Shown here: piece by piece, positions 35,183-44,723 of the stretch
How positions within the stretch are numbered: position 1 is the stretch's first letter
Layout: the number at the start of each line of letters is the position of its first letter
Origin: Actinomycetes bacterium
GTDB taxonomy: Bacteria; Actinomycetota; Acidimicrobiia; Acidimicrobiales; SZUA-35
DNA length: 64,000 bases
NCBI GenBank assembly: GCA_024280015.1
Contig: JAJRQY010000069.1
Span: forward strand, 800-64,799
Reading direction: 5' to 3'
The notes under the pieces: model-generated
Seen by the model: the letters and a program-made list of their open reading frames with translations, nothing else
Told to the model about the DNA's origin: nothing
Database searches by the model: none
Made by a program: the position numbers and the translations under genes

Positions 35183-36046
35183 TTACTTGGAGGCGAGCTG
35201 TTGCTCGGGCAAGGTGTTGCGCTTACGGTGACGATCCTGACGTGCCTTGCGATCAACCTCATCGGTGTCACCCAGCGAACGAGTGAAGATGACAAGAATC
35301 GTGATCCAGATGAACCATCCGCCAAGGATCTTCATGATGGCACCGGCCAGCTGCTGGTCGGCCAGAACATCCAGGCCCCAAAGACGAAACGGCGTGTCGT
35401 AGTGCCGATAGACAACATCATCAGCAAAGACCAGCCAACCACCGGGCACTGTTGGCACGACCGACATCAAGAACAGGTAGAGGCACTGACCGAGCGGCGG
35501 CAGTCGCCATTCGCTAATTGGCCCGATGACCGGTATCCACATCAGCAATCCTGAGGAGAAGATGATCAGATGGAAGGAAAAGTGTAGGGCCGCAGAATCG
35601 GCTGACCACTGGACGATTTTGGTCCAGTGCAAGAACATGGTCAGTAAGTTGAACAGGGCGCCAGCGATCAGGGGCGAGGAGACCTTCTTGAAACTCCGCC
35701 ACAAGCGCGTATCTGGACGAACGAGAAGCTCGAAGACCCAGCGCGGGGTGGCCAGCACAAAACAAGCTGGGATCAGCATTGACAGTAATAGATGCTGGAG
35801 CATGTGGACCGAATAGAGATAGTCCTCGGCAATATCGTGCATCGGCCAGTCCGAGGCCAGCCACATCATGGTGAGGCCAAGCCCAAACCAGATTTTCTGG
35901 CGCCGATGAATAGCCGGATATCCAGCGGCAATTGCCTTGGGCTGCAGAACCTTGGCCGAATAGCCACCAATGGCGAGAGCGCCCAACACCAGGACCCACA
36001 CTTCAGGGTGGGGCACCCAGGGAACGGGGCCGCTGATGGCAAACAT
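35183..36046 (-). CDS. ctaG: Cytochrome c oxidase assembly factor (Caa3_CtaG)
   Basis: YLYSVHMLQHLL, DQQLAGAIMK. Confidence 0.88.
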   Translation of the reverse strand: MFAISGPVPWVPHPEVWVLVLGALAIGGYSAKVLQPKAIAAGYPAIHRRQKIWFGLGLTMMWLASDWPMHDIAEDYLYSVHMLQHLLLSMLIPACFVLATPRWVFELLVRPDTRLWRSFKKVSSPLIAGALFNLLTMFLHWTKIVQWSADSAALHFSFHLIIFSSGLLMWIPVIGPISEWRLPPLGQCLYLFLMSVVPTVPGGWLVFADDVVYRHYDTPFRLWGLDVLADQQLAGAIMKILGGWFIWITILVIFTRSLGDTDEVDRKARQDRHRKRNTLPEQQLASK

Positions 36047-36067
36047 GGTCAACTACTCCCAGACGAA

Positions 36068-36406
36068 CTAGACGTTGAATTCGAAGGTAGCGACCACCGT
36101 GGTATAAACCGCCAAGGCGACCACAATCCCAGCGGCGAACGCCATGGTAAAGATCTTGCCGTTGAGCATTTTCATGTCGAACCATAGGTGCATGAACACC
36201 CCAGCAACAATAACGAACTTGACCAGCATCATCACGATGAGCGGAACGACCAGGGCCGGTCCGGAGAATCCGAGATAGGACCACAACACCTCGAACGCAG
36301 TGATGACAGCCAACAAAAGGAAGACTAGCCAGTACTGGGTTTCGGTTGGATGAGCATGGTCGTCGTGGGACTCATGCTCGGTGGATGGGGTTGCAGTGTT
36401 AGACAT
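36068..36406 (-). CDS. Cytochrome c oxidase subunit IV family
   Basis: Y..VF..LAVITAFEV...KF..V...FMHL.FD. Confidence 0.88.
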   Translation of the reverse strand: MSNTATPSTEHESHDDHAHPTETQYWLVFLLLAVITAFEVLWSYLGFSGPALVVPLIVMMLVKFVIVAGVFMHLWFDMKMLNGKIFTMAFAAGIVVALAVYTTVVATFEFNV

Positions 36407-36415
36407 GGTTCGCCT

Positions 36416-37114
36416 TTACGGAATGAGGTAGACGATGGTGAAAATTAGGACCCACACAACGTCAACGAAGTGCCAGTACAAGCCGACAAGCTCGACGGTC
36501 TCGGCTCGGTCTTGGTTGAGTTTGCCCTTGAACGAGAGCACAAGCAGGGTCATCAGCATGACAATTCCGCCGCTGACGTGGATCCCATGGAAGCCAGTGA
36601 GGGTGAAGAAGGCCGATCCAAGCAAGCTGCCGGTGAAGGAAAGTCCCTCTTCCTTGAAGGCAGTGAACTCGGCAATCTGACCGGCAATGAAGAACGAACC
36701 AAGCAGGGCCGTTGTCCCCAACCAGATTCGCAGGTTCTTATAGTCGGCTTCACTGATGGCCTTGTGAGCCAGCACCATGGCCAGCGAGCTCATCAACAAG
36801 ATGAATGAGCTAAGGGAAGTGAACGGGATATCGAAGAGGGGCTCAACAGACCCAGCGGCCCGCATTTCCTCGACCAGAGTGGGATTGGAGATCGAGTCGA
36901 CCACCACGGGGTTGCCAGCCAAGATCTCGGTCAGGAACCGAGCCTTGGACAGCAGGTAGGTGGAGATCAGAGCACCAAAGAGCAGGCACTCCGAACCAAG
37001 GAACAGCCACATGGCCAGCTTCATGTTGGACAGGTTCAGGCTGGTCGCATGCCCAGCATGCTCGTCCTCGACATGGTCGGTGGCCTGCTCGGCAACTACG
37101 GCGGCATCAGACAT
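36416..37114 (-). CDS. ctaE: Cytochrome c oxidase subunit III
   Basis: MWLFLGSE, FFTLTGFHGIHV, GLYWHFVDVVW. Confidence 0.95.
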   Translation of the reverse strand: MSDAAVVAEQATDHVEDEHAGHATSLNLSNMKLAMWLFLGSECLLFGALISTYLLSKARFLTEILAGNPVVVDSISNPTLVEEMRAAGSVEPLFDIPFTSLSSFILLMSSLAMVLAHKAISEADYKNLRIWLGTTALLGSFFIAGQIAEFTAFKEEGLSFTGSLLGSAFFTLTGFHGIHVSGGIVMLMTLLVLSFKGKLNQDRAETVELVGLYWHFVDVVWVLIFTIVYLIP

Positions 37115-39089
37115 TGACGGTGCTCGCGATCTCGGCGTGATCAGACTTGTGATCGTCATGTCCGTGGGGAAGATCAAGATCATCGGCAGGCTCAAGGGCC
37201 CAGCCGTACAGGCTAACGACCATGAGGAAGCCTCCAGGGATCGTCAACCATAGCGAGAAGATCAAGCCGTAGCCGATGAGGGGCAGCGAAGCGGCCAACA
37301 GGAGCGGCCAATAGGACGGCGCAGGAAGATGAACGCCTTCACCGTTGCCGGGCTGGGCAATGTCGGCACCATGAGCGACCTTGCGCAACTTGCCGTTCTC
37401 GTCCTCGGCATACTTCTGATGCCAGAAGTCATCAACGGAGACAATCTGCGGGTCATAGTCAAAGTTGTGTTCTGGGGCTGGACTCTGAATTGACCATTCG
37501 ATGGTACGGGCGTCCCAAGGATCAGGTCCCGGGTTCGGCTTGCCGGCCTTGTTCCACCGATACAGAGACAGGAAGACGTTGGTGATGAAGAGCAACACGC
37601 CTGATGCGAGGATGAAGGAACCAACGGTTGCCCAGAAGTTCCACAGGTTGAATCCCATGGCATCGTCATAGGTCTGCATCCTTCGCGGCATTCCCTGCAA
37701 TCCGAGAATGTGCATTGGCCCAAAGGTGAGGTTGAAACCAACGACCATGGTCCAGAAGTTCCACTTGCCCCACTTCTCATTCAGCATGTGGCCAAACACC
37801 TTCGGCCACCAGAAGTAGAAACCGGCCATGAAGCCGAAGAGGGCGCCACCAAAGAGCACATAGTGGAAGTGGGCCACAATGTAGTAGGTGTCAGTTTGCT
37901 GAGTGTCCGAGGGGGCCATGGCGTGAGTAACACCAGACAGGCCGCCGACGGTGAACTGGGTGATAAGTCCAATGGAGAACAACATGGCGGTGTTCAGGGT
38001 CAACTTGCCGCCCCACAAGGTGGCAACCCAATTCAGGATCTTCACACCGGTTGGCACGGCGATAAACATGGTGGAAAGAGCGAAGGCGGTAACCGACAAC
38101 GGTCCGATTCCAGAAACGAACATGTGGTGGGCCCACACACCGAAGCCCATGAAACCAATAGCAATGCCAGAAAAGACCATGAAGGGATAGCCGAAGATTG
38201 GTTTTCGGGCGAAGGTTGGGATGACCTCGGAGACAATGCCGAATGCAGGCAAGATCATGAGGTAAACCTCAGGATGGCCAAAGATCCAGAATAGGTGCTG
38301 CCACAAGAGCGGGTCTGCCCCTTGCTCGACGTTAAAGAAGTTGGCATCAAAGACCCGGTCCATCAACAACAAGACCTGAGCAACAGTGATGACGGGGATG
38401 GCGAACAGGAGAAGGAACTGGGTAACCAGGGACATCCACACGAAGATTGGCATCTTCATCAGGTCCATACCGGGGGCCCGCATGTTCAGGACCGTGGTAA
38501 TCAAATTGATGGCGCCGCTTAGAGAGGCAATGCCGGTGATCAGTAGTCCGACGTTCCAAAAGTCAATGCCGTGCGACGGTGAGTAGGCAACGCCATTGTT
38601 TGGTGCGTAGTTGAACCAGCCACCATCGGCACCTCCACCGAGGAACCAGCTGGAGTTCAGCATCAGCCCTCCGAGGAAGAAGCACCAGAAGCTGAAGGCG
38701 TTGATTCGGGGGAAGGCAACATCTCGGGCACCGATTTGCAAGGGCAACAAGAAGTTGGCAAAAGCAGCACCGATGGGCATCACCACCAAGAAGATCATGA
38801 TCGTGCCGTGCATGGTGTACACCTGGTTATAGGCATCTGCCGACAAGAAATTGCTATTTGGTGTAGCCAGCTGGATTCGAATGAGCAGGGCAGCAACCCC
38901 GCCAATCAGCATGAAGAATACGGCCGCTGAGCCATACATGATGCCGATCTTCTTGTGATCGACAGTCGTCAACCAGTCTTTCAGGCCAGTCTCTGACCGT
39001 GGCCGGGAGAAAACTCCAAGCGGATTGGCTACTCCAGGCTTGTCACCTTCGGGAAGGCTGTAGCGGAGGGGCTCGTTAAAGATCGCCAT
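37107..39089 (-). CDS. ctaD: Cytochrome c oxidase subunit I (A1 type)
   Basis: TMHG, GHPEVY, WAHH, HFHY, GMPRR. Confidence 0.97.
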   Translation of the reverse strand: MAIFNEPLRYSLPEGDKPGVANPLGVFSRPRSETGLKDWLTTVDHKKIGIMYGSAAVFFMLIGGVAALLIRIQLATPNSNFLSADAYNQVYTMHGTIMIFLVVMPIGAAFANFLLPLQIGARDVAFPRINAFSFWCFFLGGLMLNSSWFLGGGADGGWFNYAPNNGVAYSPSHGIDFWNVGLLITGIASLSGAINLITTVLNMRAPGMDLMKMPIFVWMSLVTQFLLLFAIPVITVAQVLLLMDRVFDANFFNVEQGADPLLWQHLFWIFGHPEVYLMILPAFGIVSEVIPTFARKPIFGYPFMVFSGIAIGFMGFGVWAHHMFVSGIGPLSVTAFALSTMFIAVPTGVKILNWVATLWGGKLTLNTAMLFSIGLITQFTVGGLSGVTHAMAPSDTQQTDTYYIVAHFHYVLFGGALFGFMAGFYFWWPKVFGHMLNEKWGKWNFWTMVVGFNLTFGPMHILGLQGMPRRMQTYDDAMGFNLWNFWATVGSFILASGVLLFITNVFLSLYRWNKAGKPNPGPDPWDARTIEWSIQSPAPEHNFDYDPQIVSVDDFWHQKYAEDENGKLRKVAHGADIAQPGNGEGVHLPAPSYWPLLLAASLPLIGYGLIFSLWLTIPGGFLMVVSLYGWALEPADDLDLPHGHDDHKSDHAEIASTVNV

Positions 39090-39103: not shown

Positions 39104-40384
39104 CTAATCGAGGGTCGCCAAGTAGGCGACGAGATTGTCAAGATCAATATCGGACAGGGTGTCGAAGGAGGGCATGCCGCGCCTGCCTTCGGCAAACATT
39201 GCCTTCCGGCTTGGCGCATCCTTGATCCACGCCAACACATCGGCCTCATTGAACTTGCCAATATCGGACAGATTCAGGTACTGGTCAGTGTCCAAGTTGT
39301 CATCATCGGGATCGATCCCGAAGTACTGACTGTAGGTGGCGCCAGCAAAGACACTTCGGCTAGCGAAGTGGGTCAGATTCGGGGCCGCGCCATTGAGCAG
39401 GTCAGCTTCGAAATCTTTGGGATACGCGTCTTGCAGATCCTGGTCGTCATTGCTGACAACATGGCAACGAGAGCACTGGGAGACAAAGACGTCATAGCCG
39501 GCACGTTCATCGGTGCCCTCGGCTGGGACTTCTGACGGCGCACTCTGTTCGGCCAACCACTGATCGAACTCGGCCTCAGGAAGCACAACGACGCTCATCC
39601 GCATTCGTGCATGGGACAGACCACAGAACTCGGTGCACCACCCGTTGTACTCGCCAGGCTCATCCGCATGGATTGACCAGTAGGTCAGGCGCCCGGGAAC
39701 GGTGTCTCGCTTTCCGTTGAGGCGCGGAATCCAGAAGGAGTGCACAACGTCGCGAGAGGTCAGGGTTAGGTCGACCTGTTGGCCTGCGGGAATGACCAGC
39801 TGATTGGGGACCGAAAGGTCATCGTCATCAAGCGCGATGTTGAGTGGCCATTCCTTGTCGTCCTGGTCGCCGGTTCCTTCGGGTCCATACAACTCGCCGT
39901 CACCATCGGCATCTTCGAAGAAGCCATCACCATCAATGTCATAGCGGTATTCCCACCACCACTGGTTGCCAATAACCATCACGTCAAGTTCGCCCGGCGC
40001 GTTGTCCTCTTCCAGCTGCCAGATGGTGTTGACCATGGGGACGGAGATGGCGGCCAAAAAGATGGCTGGGGCAATAGTCCAACCAAGTTCGGCCACCTTG
40101 TGGCCATGGACCTGGGCCGGGAGGTCGTTCTCATCATAGTCCTCGGGCTTGACTCGACCCTTGATGGTGAGGGCAATAGTACCGCCAACCACCAGTATGA
40201 AAACAACGAGGACAATCCACCAGATGTGGACCATGGAGTCATAGATGGTTTGAGCCTTCTTGCCGCGTGGCTCAAAGGTGTTGAGGGGCTTGTCGTCGGC
40301 GCACGAAGCGGCCAGCAACGTCAACGCCAAGAGGGTCACGCCACCGCGGACATTGAAACGTCGCAAGGGATTCCTTGAGGTCAT
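39104..40384 (-). CDS. ctaC: Cytochrome c oxidase subunit II with fused cytochrome c (caa3 type)
   Basis: Lipobox AASC; DVVHSF...CTEFCGLSHARM (CuA); CSRCH heme c motif. Confidence 0.95.
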   Translation of the reverse strand: MTSRNPLRRFNVRGGVTLLALTLLAASCADDKPLNTFEPRGKKAQTIYDSMVHIWWIVLVVFILVVGGTIALTIKGRVKPEDYDENDLPAQVHGHKVAELGWTIAPAIFLAAISVPMVNTIWQLEEDNAPGELDVMVIGNQWWWEYRYDIDGDGFFEDADGDGELYGPEGTGDQDDKEWPLNIALDDDDLSVPNQLVIPAGQQVDLTLTSRDVVHSFWIPRLNGKRDTVPGRLTYWSIHADEPGEYNGWCTEFCGLSHARMRMSVVVLPEAEFDQWLAEQSAPSEVPAEGTDERAGYDVFVSQCSRCHVVSNDDQDLQDAYPKDFEADLLNGAAPNLTHFASRSVFAGATYSQYFGIDPDDDNLDTDQYLNLSDIGKFNEADVLAWIKDAPSRKAMFAEGRRGMPSFDTLSDIDLDNLVAYLATLD

Positions 40385-40387
40385 GAG

Positions 40388-41179
40388 TTATTCGCCTTCA
40401 CCTTCGCCGTGGCCACCGTCATCAGCCCCATCGCTTACTCCCTGATGCTCAAAGTCTCGGATCCCTTTTTGGGCACCGAAGATACCGCCGCCGAGAATAG
40501 CCAGAGCACCGACGACCATGATGGTAGAGACAAGGCTTCGTGGCAGGTCCCGCTTGGACATCAGCACGGCAAGACCAAAGACGGTCAGGGTGACAATGGC
40601 GCCGATCACGACCGCAGCAACCGCTGAAACGGTAAGGAATACTCGGGAGCCGGCAATGGCAATGGTGCCGAACAACAGCATGCCAAGCATTGGAACCTCG
40701 ATTGGCCCAAGAACGCGCGAACGGATGATGGCATTGGCTTCGGGGTCACCAGATGCCCGGTCAGACCAAGCCGTGATCATCCACTCGATGGCCATGACGA
40801 CCAAGGTGAGGAGGCCAAGGACTAAGAAGGCCTTGCTCATGGCCAGGCCAATGATCAACAAGGCCACACCAAAGGCGGTGATGGGAGCCCAATAAACCGA
40901 GCTAAGGGTTGGCAGTGCGGGAACCGTTGAGACTCCAGCCGAATCGGCCATTGCTTGGGCATCACCGTCACGAGTAGCAATGCCAACCATGGCCAGAGCA
41001 AAGGTCACAAGGCTGGTAAAGATCAGGATGGTGTAACCAAGGTGAGCGCCGACGCCCCCCTTGTAGCCGACGCTGACCACACCAATCGGGTCACCGCCGG
41101 TGACTAAGCCGTAGACCATGGCACCAAGAAGCGCTGCTCCTGACAATGCCAATAGATATTTTGAACCCCAGGTGAGCAT
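40388..41179 (-). CDS. Membrane protein with a CtaF-like / CtaD C-terminal-like helix pair
   Basis: YWAPITAFGVALLIIGL resembles CtaD YWPLLLAASLPLIGYGL; stop lies 3 nt before ctaC. Confidence 0.6.
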   Translation of the reverse strand: MLTWGSKYLLALSGAALLGAMVYGLVTGGDPIGVVSVGYKGGVGAHLGYTILIFTSLVTFALAMVGIATRDGDAQAMADSAGVSTVPALPTLSSVYWAPITAFGVALLIIGLAMSKAFLVLGLLTLVVMAIEWMITAWSDRASGDPEANAIIRSRVLGPIEVPMLGMLLFGTIAIAGSRVFLTVSAVAAVVIGAIVTLTVFGLAVLMSKRDLPRSLVSTIMVVGALAILGGGIFGAQKGIRDFEHQGVSDGADDGGHGEGEGE

Positions 41180-41191
41180 CGTTTGACGGTC

Positions 41192-41809
41192 CTACTTGGT
41201 GATGTAGATGGCGTACCAAACAACGAGGTACAGCACAACGGCGACATTCCAGAACAGAGCAGCGCCATAAATGCCTTCAACATCTTTGGCGTTGTAGTTG
41301 CCACCTAAGGTACGCAATCCCATGACTATCACGTACAGCATTGCTGCGGCCATGATCAACATGTGGGCACCGATAAGGGCGTAGAACAAGGGGGGACGAG
41401 CCAGCTCGTCCCCGGCGGCAGGCATTCCCATAATCTCAAGTAAGAAGCCAGTCTGGGCAAGATAGGCGAAGCCAAAGACAACACAAAGCGACAAGGCAAT
41501 GTGGGTGTTTGCTCGGTCGTCATGGCGAATGGCTGATACAGCCCAGGCCATAGCCACCATGGACATGACCAGGGTGATGGCCATCATGTTGGGCTGGGTC
41601 AGGGGGATGGTGACTCCCTTTGGCAGCCAGATTTCGCCTTGGGCCAAGACCGCAGCCCGGCTCTGCACATAGATGCCAAGCAAGCCAGCCATGCCCATGG
41701 TTGCCGCCATGGCAGCTAGGGCGGTGCCGATCACCAACAAGCGAGGCCGAGAGGCCTCGGGTGCAGCAACAGTTTCGGGGAGGGCGTCGAAGACGGTGAT
41801 ATCGGTCAT
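41192..41809 (-). CDS. Divergent cytochrome c oxidase subunit III paralog
   Basis: FYALIGAHMLIM and ALFWNVAVVLYLVVWYAIY align by eye with CtaE FFTLTGFHGIHV and GLYWHFVDVVW. Confidence 0.78.
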   Translation of the reverse strand: MTDITVFDALPETVAAPEASRPRLLVIGTALAAMAATMGMAGLLGIYVQSRAAVLAQGEIWLPKGVTIPLTQPNMMAITLVMSMVAMAWAVSAIRHDDRANTHIALSLCVVFGFAYLAQTGFLLEIMGMPAAGDELARPPLFYALIGAHMLIMAAAMLYVIVMGLRTLGGNYNAKDVEGIYGAALFWNVAVVLYLVVWYAIYITK

Positions 41810-43485
41810 CAGGCTTCCTCTGCCTTGTTCGGCGTGGGTTGGCTCAGTACGGCCATACCGCTCGTTGACTCCATGACTGGTGCGGAAGCAAAGTTGCCAA
41901 GGGAGGGTGGTGAAGACGTGGTCCACTCAAGTGACTGCCCAGACCACGGTTCGGGTGTTGTTCCCGTTCCAAGTGCGGTGCGAGCCAGGTTGGCAAGAAA
42001 CACTAGAGCACCCAGGCCGAGTACAGCGAAGCCAATGGTGGCTAGCACATTGAGCACCTCCACCCCATCCTTTGGTCCAACACCGATGCCAGGAAGTGCT
42101 GGTTGCTCCAGCATGCCGCTGATGACATAGGCGCCGCCCCAGGCAATCGTGCCAGCAGAGACGAGCAAGATGCTCAGCATGCCTAGCTTGTCGTCCAGCG
42201 AACGGCCCCAAATCTTGTGACCCCAATGATGGACTGAGCTCACGATTCCGAGCAAGACCGCCCCGAGGATCAAACCACGAATGCCTTCGTGGAACGAAGA
42301 GTCGGCAAGGCGCAGGGCTGAGCTGACGTCGATCTCACTGTTTGAAGCATCGGCAACGAATTCGAGAATTGGTTCGATCAGCGCCAGGAGGGCAACGAGG
42401 GCGCCAACCGCAAGTAAGGCCATAGCGGCCATGCCAGCAACAAGCGGGGTGTTAGTGGCCGGCTTACCGTTCTTGACCGCATCAGCGGCCATGCCAAGGA
42501 GAAGGAGGATCGGAACCACGGCGGCAAGAACTCCGAGGACAAGCACGGCATTGTCAAACTCGATGGCTCGGCCACGACCTCCGAAAGTCAGGATGTCTGC
42601 CCCGAACGAAAGGACAAGTAACGAGCCGATCAAGGCAAGCGCTGGCTTGTGGAATCGGACCCTTGACTCGGATTGGGTCGCGACAACATCGAGTCCCATG
42701 CCCAGGACAGGAATGCCGACCCAGTACAGAGCCGGTGCCAGGCTGAGGCTATTGAGGATGGACAGCAGGGCTTGACGATCGACCTTGGTGGACAAGTAGT
42801 CAGCGCTGACATCGGCGTAGGCCAAGCCAAGCTCGCCAATCAGGATCGGGAGGGTGAGGAGCCCAAGAAGGGAGAAGACCAGGAATGACCAGGTGCTGAT
42901 TGGCACGTGTTCCAACCGCATGCCGATGGTTCGAGCACCGAGGATGGTGGTTGCGATGCAGACAAAGGCCCAGCAGAAACCGACAAGCATGGTTCCAAGG
43001 GCCAAGATCCACAGCAGGACGGCATCCTTGGAACCACCGGCTGGTCCGCCGTTGGCCACCACAGCCAAGATCAGGATTCCGGTAGCGAGAAGCCACGTCC
43101 AAAAGGCGCCAGCTGCCCCACGGCCAAAGGCGATGGCTGATGCGCCAACCTGGAGTGGTGTGAGGTAGGTGGCTAAGCCGATGAGGACGGGGATGACACC
43201 ACCAAAGAGCAGGAGGGTTCTTCCCGCTGACCAAGCTTGAACGAATTGTCCCTCGTCTTCAAACAATCCAACGGAGCCGAGGTCGATCAGTTCGATGCTG
43301 GCAATCGTGGACAAGACCAGAGCTAGGAGCACAAAGGCGGCGCCAGCACCAATCCACATCCGACCGATCGTCTTGTGATCGCTGGTGCTCAAGACGCGTT
43401 CCAGAGCGGGCCTGGCAGCGGAATCGGAGGTCTGGATTGAGTCAGTCGTTGAATCAGTCTCGGTGCGAGTTTGAGTCAATGCCAT
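41809..43485 (-). CDS. Heme-copper oxidase subunit I paralog lacking metal ligands
   Basis: TSDHKTIG, PLQVGA..IAF.R, TTILGAR..GM, W.HKIWG and PWSGQSLEWTTSSPP align with CtaD; His ligands absent. Confidence 0.82.
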   Translation of the reverse strand: MALTQTRTETDSTTDSIQTSDSAARPALERVLSTSDHKTIGRMWIGAGAAFVLLALVLSTIASIELIDLGSVGLFEDEGQFVQAWSAGRTLLLFGGVIPVLIGLATYLTPLQVGASAIAFGRGAAGAFWTWLLATGILILAVVANGGPAGGSKDAVLLWILALGTMLVGFCWAFVCIATTILGARTIGMRLEHVPISTWSFLVFSLLGLLTLPILIGELGLAYADVSADYLSTKVDRQALLSILNSLSLAPALYWVGIPVLGMGLDVVATQSESRVRFHKPALALIGSLLVLSFGADILTFGGRGRAIEFDNAVLVLGVLAAVVPILLLLGMAADAVKNGKPATNTPLVAGMAAMALLAVGALVALLALIEPILEFVADASNSEIDVSSALRLADSSFHEGIRGLILGAVLLGIVSSVHHWGHKIWGRSLDDKLGMLSILLVSAGTIAWGGAYVISGMLEQPALPGIGVGPKDGVEVLNVLATIGFAVLGLGALVFLANLARTALGTGTTPEPWSGQSLEWTTSSPPSLGNFASAPVMESTSGMAVLSQPTPNKAEEA

Positions 43486-43661
43486 GGTTGCGGGGGCCTC
43501 AGCGCGGTTCGGTGGATACAGGACGGATTTCGCTGCCGTCGAGAACGAGGCGGCAAGAACGAGCTGTCAGACAAAGGCCCAACGCATCGCGCGTCAGGCC
43601 CACCCAAACAGCAGGCTCGTACTCTAACCGCTCTAGAGTCAGGATCGGAAACTCTGCTCAT

Positions 43662-44567
43662 TCAGGTTCCCCAACCAACCAACATGTCGATGGCAACGGC
43701 GGCAAACAAGATGGTGAGATGGGTGATGGAGAAGCCAAAGTAGCGGATGGCTTTTTTCTCGAGAACCGCCGGATTCGTCTCTCGAACAAGATCCAGAGCA
43801 CCGCCGGAGAACATGGCTCCGACAACGACGGCCGAACCAACGTAGATCCAGCCCATATTGGCCACTGGCCACAAGGCAAGGCTGACAGCCCAGACAATGA
43901 GGGAGTAGACAAACATTTGACGGGCCGTCGACTTGTGCCCGGCTACCACCGGCATCATTGGAACTTCGGCCGCGGCATAGTCAGATTCGTAGCGGATGGC
44001 CAAAGCCCAGAAGTGTGGTGGGGTCCAAAAGAAAACCACCAAGAACAGCAGGACTGCGGGCCAGCCAACCGAGTTGGTGACCGCTGACCAGCCAATCAGT
44101 ACTGGAGCGGCACCAGCGACCCCGCCAATGACAATATTTTGAGTCGAGGTTCGTTTCAGCCAGATGGTGTACACGAACACATAGAAGAGGCAGGCAGCAA
44201 CGGCCAGGGCAGCGGAAAGCAGGTTTACGAAATGCCAGAGGTAGAAGAAAGCCACGATTTCTAGACCAATGGCGAAGATCAGTCCTTCTTGGGGCTGGAT
44301 CTCGCCAGTGACGAGCGGTCGCCCCTTCGTCCGTTCCATCTTGGCGTCAATATCTCGATCGACGTACATATTGATGGCGTTGGCGCCGCCGGCTGACAGT
44401 GAGCCACCAATGACCGTGTTGATCATGAGCCAGACAGAGGGCATGCCGCGTTCAGCCAGCACCATTGTCGGCACAGTACTGACAAGGAGTAATTCGATAA
44501 TTCGAGGTTTGGTAAGGGCGACGAATGCCCCCACCCTTGATCGGGTCACAGATGCGGTTAGAACCAC
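43662..44567 (-). CDS. ctaB: Protoheme IX farnesyltransferase (heme o synthase)
   Basis: ALTKPRI, DRDIDAKMERTKGRP, NIVIGG, WTPPHFWAL; start uncertain. Confidence 0.95.
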   Translation of the reverse strand: MVLTASVTRSRVGAFVALTKPRIIELLLVSTVPTMVLAERGMPSVWLMINTVIGGSLSAGGANAINMYVDRDIDAKMERTKGRPLVTGEIQPQEGLIFAIGLEIVAFFYLWHFVNLLSAALAVAACLFYVFVYTIWLKRTSTQNIVIGGVAGAAPVLIGWSAVTNSVGWPAVLLFLVVFFWTPPHFWALAIRYESDYAAAEVPMMPVVAGHKSTARQMFVYSLIVWAVSLALWPVANMGWIYVGSAVVVGAMFSGGALDLVRETNPAVLEKKAIRYFGFSITHLTILFAAVAIDMLVGWGT

Positions 44568-44723
44568 GGAACATAGGGTACCGAGCGATGTCAAGAGCAG
44601 ACGGTGCTGAGTTGTGAACTCTGGCCGGTCGCCGATTGTTCTTGCTTCTTGTTCTTGATGCGTCAATTCTTTCTGTGCTCCAGGGAGTAGAAGTTGCCCC
44701 TCTAGTCTCCGCTCCTTAGCGTT

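Follow-up and report, generated by a model that had tools for sequence, protein, structure and literature searches.

That an enzyme fold may be kept for its architecture after the active site has been lost is well known from the peptidase-like core proteins of the mitochondrial bc1 complex, which are catalytically dead paralogues serving as structural subunits. At the locus described here the corresponding step would have affected a whole multi-subunit membrane core, which would have been duplicated and then stripped. The locus lies in a stretch of 64,000 nucleotides from an Actinomycetes bacterium of the order Acidimicrobiales (assembly GCA_024280015.1, contig JAJRQY010000069.1), referred to in the following as the window, and consists of three consecutive genes, I′, III′ and X, which head the structural genes of a caa3-type cytochrome c oxidase and encode a paralogue of oxidase subunit I, a paralogue of subunit III and a further membrane protein, respectively.

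The closest described relatives of I′ are the A-family subunits I (CtaD/CoxA), above all those of the actinobacterial bcc-aa3 supercomplexes (PDB entries 9gy6, 7q21 and 6hwh), with which it shares the 12-helix fold (TM-score 0.77-0.80 at 23-25% identity), the same loop motifs and, by homology, subunit III-like and CtaF-like partners, but from which it differs in having neither the ligands of haem a, haem a3 and CuB nor a D or K channel. A 2024 survey of the haem-copper oxidase superfamily (Murali et al., PMC11214002) names gNOR as the only family in which conservation of the active-site histidines is not complete, and as the first to replace even one of them. This family resembles the present case in departing from the supposedly invariant histidines and has a second subunit whose cupredoxin fold lacks CuA ligands, but in gNOR a single histidine is exchanged for aspartate and the enzyme is thought to be catalytic, whereas in I′ all six are replaced by residues that do not act as ligands (PMC11214002). 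Such genes go unmentioned in the available parts of a review of oxidase assembly proteins (PMC9145763) and of an Acidimicrobiia marker study (PMC5962788), and a full-text literature search, outside of which supplements were left, found no description of a ligand-less subunit I paralogue, although the datasets of PMC11214002 may list ligand-less families. This is in agreement with the first-pass annotation, which was made from the sequence alone and knew of no characterised system of this kind.

Loss of the haem and copper ligands in I′

Similarity far beyond what could arise by chance confirms that I′ is a true COX1 homologue with the 12-helix fold of subunit I. The protein matches Pfam COX1 (PF00115) with E 8e-24 (84.7 bits against a cut-off of 34.8) and falls far below the equivalog cut-off of NCBIfam CtaD_CoxA (133 against 670.75 bits), and a BLASTP comparison with the CtaD encoded 4 kb downstream gives 131 identities in 548 positions (24%, E 2e-27) over nearly the full length, so that the end-to-end alignment with CtaD proposed in the first-pass annotation for the 558-residue open reading frame is borne out, as are the positions of the reading frames, all of which lie on the minus strand, and the TGATG junction between I′ and III′. 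An AlphaFold2 model built from 60 homologues has 12 transmembrane helices, with a predicted local distance difference test score (pLDDT) of 90.6 and a predicted TM-score of 0.92. Its best Foldseek match is chain 9gy6_F, the mycobacterial aa3 subunit I (E 1.3e-20, TM-score 0.80), and among the 91 matches at E <= 1e-3 the solved subunit I chains have TM-scores of 0.75-0.80 at 18-25% identity, the top ones being subunits I of mycobacterial and corynebacterial bcc-aa3, of E. coli bo3 and of Paracoccus aa3. The C-terminal extension that CtaD of the window carries is missing from I′.

To read the ligand columns, CtaD was aligned with two sets of family members, one of 120 and one of 143 sequences, the larger set with MAFFT. 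I′ of the window retains none of the six histidines that bind the low-spin haem, the high-spin haem and CuB, the six columns being occupied by Gly, Ala, Leu, Thr, Ile and Gly in two alignments, while a third alignment places a gap in the fourth column. Of the channel residues, D123, N130 and E274 are each replaced by Ala and K350 by Leu, these columns being A/S/T, A, A/Q/S and V/L/T respectively in the family at large, and the arginines of the PRR motif are gone as well. Pairing CtaD with I′ in the MAFFT alignment, the altered motifs read VYTMHGTIM/AWSAGRTLL, IGARDVAFPR/VGASAIAFGR, FGHPEVY/SLAPALY, FGVWAHHMF/FGADILTFG, PTGVK/PILLL, AHFHY/EGIRGL and MPRR/QPALP, by which every one of the motif replacements listed in the first-pass annotation is reproduced, and neither the proper alignments nor the structure model recover the histidine ligands. 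We can conclude that the ligands of haem a, haem a3 and CuB and the proton-channel residues have been completely lost in I′ of the window. What has been kept is the framework, since I′ and CtaD have in common the motifs DHK.IG, PLQ.GA..AF.R, GG..GG, R..GM.L...P...W, W..K..G and PW...LEW...SPP...NF, including all three structural motifs that had been noted as retained (DHK.IG, PLQ.GA and PW...EW...SP), and 66 columns of I′ are conserved in at least 90% of the 120 members. Two more residues, the tyrosine in GHPEVY and the arginine in AFPR, also survive in I′; at the site of the His-Tyr cross-link cofactor the tyrosine column is Y in 122 of the 143 members, and the histidine partner is Ala in the window.

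III′ is a five-helix protein that matches Pfam COX3 weakly, if above threshold (E 3.8e-7, 30.7 bits against a cut-off of 23.8), falls below the cut-off of NCBIfam aa3_CtaE_Actin (39.5 against 190 bits) and is 19% identical to the genuine CtaE of the window (alignment A3). The reference span used for it, 41192-41812, is longer at the upstream end by a single Leu codon.

In the wider family the loss is graded. Among the 143 members, which are mostly close relatives, ligand histidines number none in 125, one in 12, two in 5 and three in 1, and His occupies the three CuB columns in no more than 2, 1 and 2 members, whereas 137 full-length non-redundant representatives comprise 83 without any, 29 with one, 20 with two, 3 with three and one each with four and six. 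Exactly H94 and H409, the low-spin haem pair, are found in 15 of these 137, and the same pair with other histidines in 5 more, i.e. both low-spin haem histidines occur in 20 (about 15%) of the distant representatives, one of which is probably an ordinary oxidase. Since His is all but absent from the CuB columns, where the wider family mostly has Gln (58 and 90 of 137), the ligands appear to have been lost stepwise, the binuclear centre going first and the low-spin haem site later in most lines, that of the window included. The designation of the module as cofactor-less in the first-pass annotation thus holds for the window protein and for most family members, but not for those distant ones that keep both low-spin haem histidines. 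Examples that combine this pair with a lack of CuB ligands are P0104, P0113, P0114, L040:9194-10786:+ and L044 (8953-10536, minus strand), and such relatives may be one-haem intermediates. P0258, which has all six histidines and scores 346 bits with the I′ profile, was considered as a missing link and rejected, as its identity is 38% with CtaD but 25% with I′, its best match among the 301 genomes of the class is at 45%, and its metagenome relatives (at most 50% identical) occur in ordinary ctaC-ctaD-ctaB loci; it can be regarded as a probable ordinary oxidase that closes the list of profile matches.

In a quick IQ-TREE phylogeny of 66 rows (LG+G4), from which every second I′ row, the L048 fragment and the L003 paralogue (not recovered by the tblastn filter) were absent, the I′ sequences form one clade with support 100 on a stem of 1.54 substitutions per site. 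This clade lies outside that of the operon CtaD, yet the tree does not settle its position relative to another paralogue of the same genome, and neither a donor nor a date can be claimed for I′.

X, the predicted complex and its conservation

X of the window has no match in Pfam or NCBIfam, and its relationships become visible through its orthologues and their profile. Residues 1-140 form a four-helix half resembling CtaF, the actinobacterial subunit IV, residues 141-160 a conserved cytoplasmic loop with the orthologue consensus ERATGD...NR..R.R.M.P.E.P, and residues 161-240 an anchor of three transmembrane helices homologous to that of a blue-copper protein, followed by an acidic tail. With regard to the first half, Cyt_c_ox_IV matches 5 of 21 X orthologues weakly (best E 1.1e-4, under the gathering score), positions 4-132 of the X profile span the whole of Corynebacterium glutamicum CtaF (7q21_F, E 0.0033), positions 70-137 also match the C-terminal extension of CtaD in several genomes (E ~4e-6), and one Atlas neighbour cluster is named 'Cytochrome c oxidase polypeptide IV' (score 0.92). 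With regard to the second, Cupredoxin_1 matches 3 of the 21 orthologues, and a C-terminal domain of about 100 residues is retained in 6 of them, being Pfam Cupredoxin_1 in three of the six, while X of the window has the acidic tail in place of the copper domain. The AlphaFold2 model of X has seven membrane helices and moderate confidence (pLDDT 71.9), and a Foldseek search with it returned nothing at E <= 1e-3.

The origin of the second half is indicated by a sample of 401 genomes of the phylum, in which full-length X is confined to the order of the window (21 of 23 genomes sampled there), while 89 further genomes match the second half of the profile only (positions ~129-270, E 1e-9 to 1e-25). 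Ten of these half-match loci were read (L081-L090, among them L089 from the unpublished genome G464, which was excluded from the comparison of copper motifs and included in the tree); ctaC-ctaD-ctaE-ctaF is present in all ten and ctaG in nine, no second COX1 was found in any, and the matching gene directly follows ctaG in 8 of the 9 published loci and ctaF in the remaining one. Its product, of 211-328 residues, has the conserved loop, three transmembrane helices and a genuine type-1 copper domain, and the copper motif C..H..M is present in 9 of 9 such proteins as opposed to 0 of 21 X; the two that were checked against Pfam match Cupredoxin_1/Copper-bind. A single-sequence tblastn search with the C-terminal half of X against the out-group loci gave nothing significant (best E 0.036), the homology of the anchor being seen by profile only. 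We found no name for this membrane-anchored type-1 copper protein, examples of which are L083:9491-10150:+ and L082:6565-7215:+, and which may be a tethered electron donor or a copper-handling subunit of the oxidase.

Since the first half matches CtaF and the second the blue-copper protein, these orthologue and profile matches indicate that X is a fusion of a CtaF-like four-helix half with the anchor of a blue-copper protein, and the copper site has been lost. From CtaF, with the whole of which its N-terminal helices align, X of the window differs in lying below every Pfam threshold and in having three further helices and the cytoplasmic loop, and from the copper protein, with which it shares loop and anchor, in the absence of C..H..M and in its acidic tail. 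The earlier description of X as a CtaF-like protein abutting ctaC is therefore right as to the first half and the position, 3 nucleotides before ctaC, but incomplete in that the second half is a blue-copper anchor. Mean column identity is 0.53 in the C-terminal half, 0.49 in the N-terminal half and 0.59 in the cytoplasmic loop.

A complex of I′ (residues 31-545), III′ and X was modelled with a separate alignment for each chain and X as the scored partner. It scored 0.76, 0.76 and 0.75 in three runs, against 0.36 for the best of three controls, the mark used being one that is reached by 58 of 80 solved complexes and by 2 of 110 mismatched pairs. The runs had at least 91% of contacts in common, with a partner pLDDT of at least 67. 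X makes its confident contacts exclusively through residues 3-144, i.e. through the CtaF-like half, and these reach residues 110-137, 154-165, 182-192, 210-223, 287-314 and 529-535 of I′ and residues 16-53 and 159-172 of III′, while the second half makes no confident contact with either. The model thus lends support to, but does not demonstrate, a docking of X through its CtaF-like half where I′ and III′ meet, and with it the grouping of the three proteins into one module, and in this part the multimer prediction suggested in the first-pass annotation speaks for the grouping made there.

The three genes are under strong purifying selection and hold an invariant operon position across the order. 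Against an 86%-identical orthologue on the chromosome of an Acidimicrobiales metagenome-assembled genome (L055), the ratio of nonsynonymous to synonymous substitution rates (dN/dS), estimated by NG86/YN00, amounts in I′ to 0.087/0.111, in III′ to 0.038/0.036 and in X to 0.073/0.087 at a synonymous divergence (dS) of 0.65-1.0. The corresponding values are 0.027/0.028 in ctaB, 0.047/0.047 in ctaC and 0.029/0.025 in ctaD, with dS ranging over 0.65-1.3 once these genes are included. The order I′-III′-X-ctaC-ctaD-ctaE-ctaF is kept with intact frames in 20 of 20 loci from many families of the order, and ctaB lies directly upstream of I′ in 18 of them, the only ctaB match of L050 being ~8 kb off and none having been found in L043. 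Three more genomes that were negative in a strict search for I′ have a more divergent I′ at the same place in the operon and the same order of genes. In all 23 loci read the reading frames are intact and the trio is never found away from the caa3 operon, and in 14 of the 18 loci in which the junction could be resolved the stop codon of I′ runs into the start of III′, with 1 or 4 nucleotides in common. The checks of conservation, synteny and dN/dS thus revealed neither absence nor frameshifts of the orthologues nor a dN/dS near 1. Across genomes I′ is 28-45% identical to that of the window, while CtaD is 60-81% identical.

For a census of the order X was chosen, since it has no paralogue to confuse the count, and its profile detects it in 106 of the order's 151 genomes; among high-quality genomes the count is 81 of 119, and by genus 85 of 123. 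G014, G019, G095, G111, G151 and G239, which all have the operon, are each assembled as a single contig. G029 and G047, which lack X, also lack this type of operon and have only a ctaD that is 42-45% identical. Searching with I′ itself (E <= 1e-40) had yielded 45 of 301 genomes of the class, which is an undercount because the three apparently negative genomes hold a more divergent I′ in the same place. Together the order census, the phylum sample and the search of the class include the unpublished genomes G330, G413, G496, G737, G464, G780, G581, G629, G420, G531, G436, G212, G275 and G254. Searched against 1.84 billion cluster representatives, the I′ profile gave 943 matches at E <= 1e-30, and the best 150 of these (50% identity clusters) all score at least 336 bits, one of them being a probable ordinary oxidase.

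The gene row and its surroundings

The caa3 region is a single tight row on the minus strand in the order ctaB-I′-III′-X-ctaC-ctaD-ctaE-ctaF-ctaG (Table 1). The stop codon of I′ and the ATG of III′ have one base in common, and the gaps from III′ to X and from X to ctaC are 12 and 3 nucleotides, respectively. The one sizeable gap, between ctaB and I′, is a possible internal promoter or leader; a scan for consensus promoters and terminators found nothing within it. The promoter scan gave one promoter-like site, on the wrong strand, and the terminator-like sites number 13 against 8.6 expected and are all intragenic. A search for sequencing runs listed three holders, all from one study and none of them recorded as RNA.

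Table 1. Features of the caa3 region in window coordinates, from ctaA downwards
Feature	Position	Strand	Product and evidence
ctaA	44724..45800	+	Haem A synthase; divergent from ctaB; Pfam COX15-CtaA E 2.9e-23
ctaB	43662..44666	-	Haem O synthase; directly upstream of I′; Pfam UbiA E 6.9e-66
ctaB-I′ spacer	43486..43661	-	176 nucleotides; sole sizeable gap in the row
I′	41809..43485	-	558-residue subunit I paralogue, 12 transmembrane helices; Pfam COX1
I′ histidines 279, 399, 419, 420, 423	about 42651, 42291, 42231, 42228, 42219	-	Subfamily alignment
III′	41192..41809	-	205-residue subunit III paralogue, 5 transmembrane helices; Pfam COX3
X	40388..41179	-	263-residue protein, 7 transmembrane helices; no Pfam or NCBIfam match for the window protein
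ctaC	39104..40384	-	Genuine subunit II with fused cytochrome c domain; Pfam COX2 E 3e-21 and Cytochrome_CBB3/Cytochrom_C
ctaD	37107..39089	-	Genuine subunit I, 660 residues, all ligands; Pfam COX1 E 2.8e-158
ctaE	36416..37195	-	Genuine subunit III; Pfam COX3 E 4e-22
ctaF	36068..36406	-	COX4_pro type; Pfam COX4_pro E 1.5e-7
ctaG	35183..36052	-	Caa3_CtaG assembly factor, last in the row; Pfam Caa3_CtaG E 1.2e-43

Of the genuine subunits, CtaC exceeds the NCBIfam CoxB cut-off (175.5 against 147.7 bits) and CtaD that of CtaD_CoxA (702.8 against 670.75 bits), and the start codon of ctaE is uncertain, the true start probably lying downstream of 37195. CtaD ends in an extension of two helices (residues 574-633, window 37107-37400) that matches Cyt_c_ox_IV (E 2.2e-8), and as a separate ctaF of the COX4_pro type is encoded as well, the genuine enzyme has two kinds of 'subunit IV'. 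CtaC carries a long acidic insertion with runs of D, E and G (residues ~150-195, window 39600-39900), which immediately precedes the cupredoxin stretch recognised by Pfam COX2 (residues 190-265).

The row is flanked by housekeeping genes, namely those of an ABC-2 transporter, DegV, adenylosuccinate lyase, adenylosuccinate synthetase and ClpB. The source genome (4.8 Mb in 175 contigs, 96.6% complete) contains three ordinary COX1 genes in addition to I′, has its cytochrome b genes on other contigs and encodes Surf1 elsewhere, for which reason a role of the module as a replacement for Surf1 was rejected. The third COX1 gene (G000:C67:12222-16574; L003, L182) scores 310 bits and stands beside a weak cytochrome b-like match within an open frame of 841 codons, and this region could represent an unusual fused or adjacent arrangement of oxidase and cytochrome b.

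Possible roles of the module

Taken together, the module appears to be a pseudo-enzyme derivative of the haem-copper oxidase core, and the idea put forward in the first-pass annotation, that a non-catalytic copy of the oxidase membrane core is being maintained, is supported by the absent ligands, the intact orthologues and a dN/dS of 0.04-0.11. As to its function, the reading we favour, and to which we would give an even chance of being correct, is that I′, III′ and X are the redox-dead ghost of an aa3 core that serves as a structural partner of the caa3 oxidase, be it as a pseudo-protomer or as a scaffold for a supercomplex. The three proteins would be made in step with the oxidase and assemble into a core composed of subunit I-, III- and IV-like parts and a cupredoxin-type membrane anchor, which would perform no oxygen chemistry, pump no protons and be the stoichiometric structural partner of the enzyme encoded immediately downstream. 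The second half of X would be the likely bridge to the genuine caa3 enzyme, since it is as conserved as the first half, makes no contacts within the modelled module and has an out-group homologue that accompanies an oxidase, so that it may bind something else, most simply the genuine oxidase itself. More tentative, and rather doubtful as a whole, is a further-reaching version, in which an entire oxidase core (subunits I, III and IV with the cupredoxin anchor) would have been duplicated and stripped of every redox centre, to end up in most Acidimicrobiales as a redox-silent complex obligately paired with the working caa3 oxidase, with X as the bridge and with a possible regulatory or metal site at H279, H419 and H420 on the cytoplasmic face.

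Several points weigh against a purely structural partner. The assembly genes ctaB and ctaG belong to the same row, and membership in the operon can therefore not separate a subunit from an assembly factor, and the result of the complex prediction may stem from the model's memory of, or the likeness to, solved CtaD/CtaE/CtaF complexes. Furthermore, the low-spin haem pair kept by about 15% of the distant members means that the ancestral role may have been redox-active, and the histidines gained in the subfamily of the window (see below) could serve as metal ligands, so that the term cofactor-less must be considered unproven.

Among the alternatives, the one that survives best, unlikely as we judge it, is that the module is an assembly platform, i.e. 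a transient scaffold or chaperone which receives haem a from CtaA/CtaB, copper, or nascent CtaC/CtaD, and which is not part of the finished enzyme. The trio does lie between ctaB, the gene of haem O synthase, and those of the oxidase subunits, in a row that ctaG closes and from which ctaA diverges, X is partly derived from the anchor of a copper protein, and the subfamily has conserved histidines at new positions. However, the usual haem a insertion factor, Surf1, is encoded elsewhere in the genome, I′ lacks all known haem ligands, and the tight translational coupling suggests stoichiometric production. In addition, sister lineages with a CtaD 55-61% identical to the window type have oxidase operons without I′ and III′ and assemble the orthologous enzyme nonetheless.

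That I′ has instead been re-tooled to bind a metal or haem through new ligands, for instance to store copper or haem, to act as a sensor or to relay electrons, with the members retaining the low-spin pair being redox-active, seems fairly improbable. In the 102 closest members, the window subfamily, the residues gained include the histidines H420 (96 members), H279 (86), H419 (79), H399 (78) and H423 (55), none of which is found in CtaD, as well as C176 (65), and the new histidines could form a site on the cytoplasmic face. None of them is invariant, however, and H399 is some 20 residues away from H419/H420 along helix 10. The low-spin pair, alone in 15 and with other histidines in 5 of the 137 representatives, and the glutamines that fill most CuB columns would fit a cofactor of some kind in the wider family, but the old ligand columns of the window protein hold Gly, Ala, Leu, Ile and Gly and, in one alignment, a gap.

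No more probable is an independent membrane function, in which the trio would be a channel, a transporter or a lipid or quinone binder merely co-transcribed with the oxidase. The notion draws on the 12-helix fold with its three pores, in which the loss of haem could open cavities, and on the fact that the family is fast-evolving yet constrained. The small residues now found at the ligand columns would however suggest tighter packing of the helices rather than cavities, and at every known proton-path position the residue is now Ala, Ser, Leu or Val. What is conserved in 90% or more of the 120 members consists mostly of loop or structural residues common to CtaD, with few new polar ones (R42, D154 and R89, present in 101, 100 and 98 of the 102 subfamily members), and in the 23 loci read the trio never leaves this operon. 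Lastly, a decaying remnant of a duplicated oxidase operon, for which the loss of all catalytic residues and the long stem in the tree might be adduced, is refuted by the low dN/dS, the frames that are intact in all 23 loci read, the 149 or more cluster representatives (50% identity) that score at least 336 bits, the 66 strongly conserved columns and the confident AlphaFold2 model, and has a negligible chance of being correct.

Irrespective of function, what is new here is the apparent fusion in X with a copper-protein anchor that has lost its metal site, the stepwise loss of cofactors within the family and the histidines gained by the subfamily. A practical consequence concerns annotation. Public records label I′ relatives as 'cbb3-type cytochrome c oxidase subunit I' (e.g. 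P0033, P0046, P0047 and P0061), and the available part of an acid-mine-drainage study of metagenome-assembled genomes (PMC8357290) mentions 'cbb3-type' oxidases in those of Acidimicrobiales. The label is doubly wrong, since the I′ family is by sequence similarity of the A type and the ligands are absent, and automated metabolic reconstructions and gene inventories of Acidimicrobiales genomes may consequently count an oxidase that does not exist. The six histidines of subunit I have moreover been treated as a defining invariant of the superfamily, and the present family is large, maintained and devoid of them in most of its members; it thereby offers a natural experiment on the non-catalytic roles of the subunit I/III scaffold. 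Should the module prove to be redox-silent and obligately tied to the caa3 oxidase, the haem-copper oxidase superfamily would have its first pseudo-enzyme complex, and if it is a structural partner at all, a new question would be posed as to how respiratory complexes are organised in a major, little-cultured lineage of actinobacteria, the order that carries X being an abundant one in the environment.

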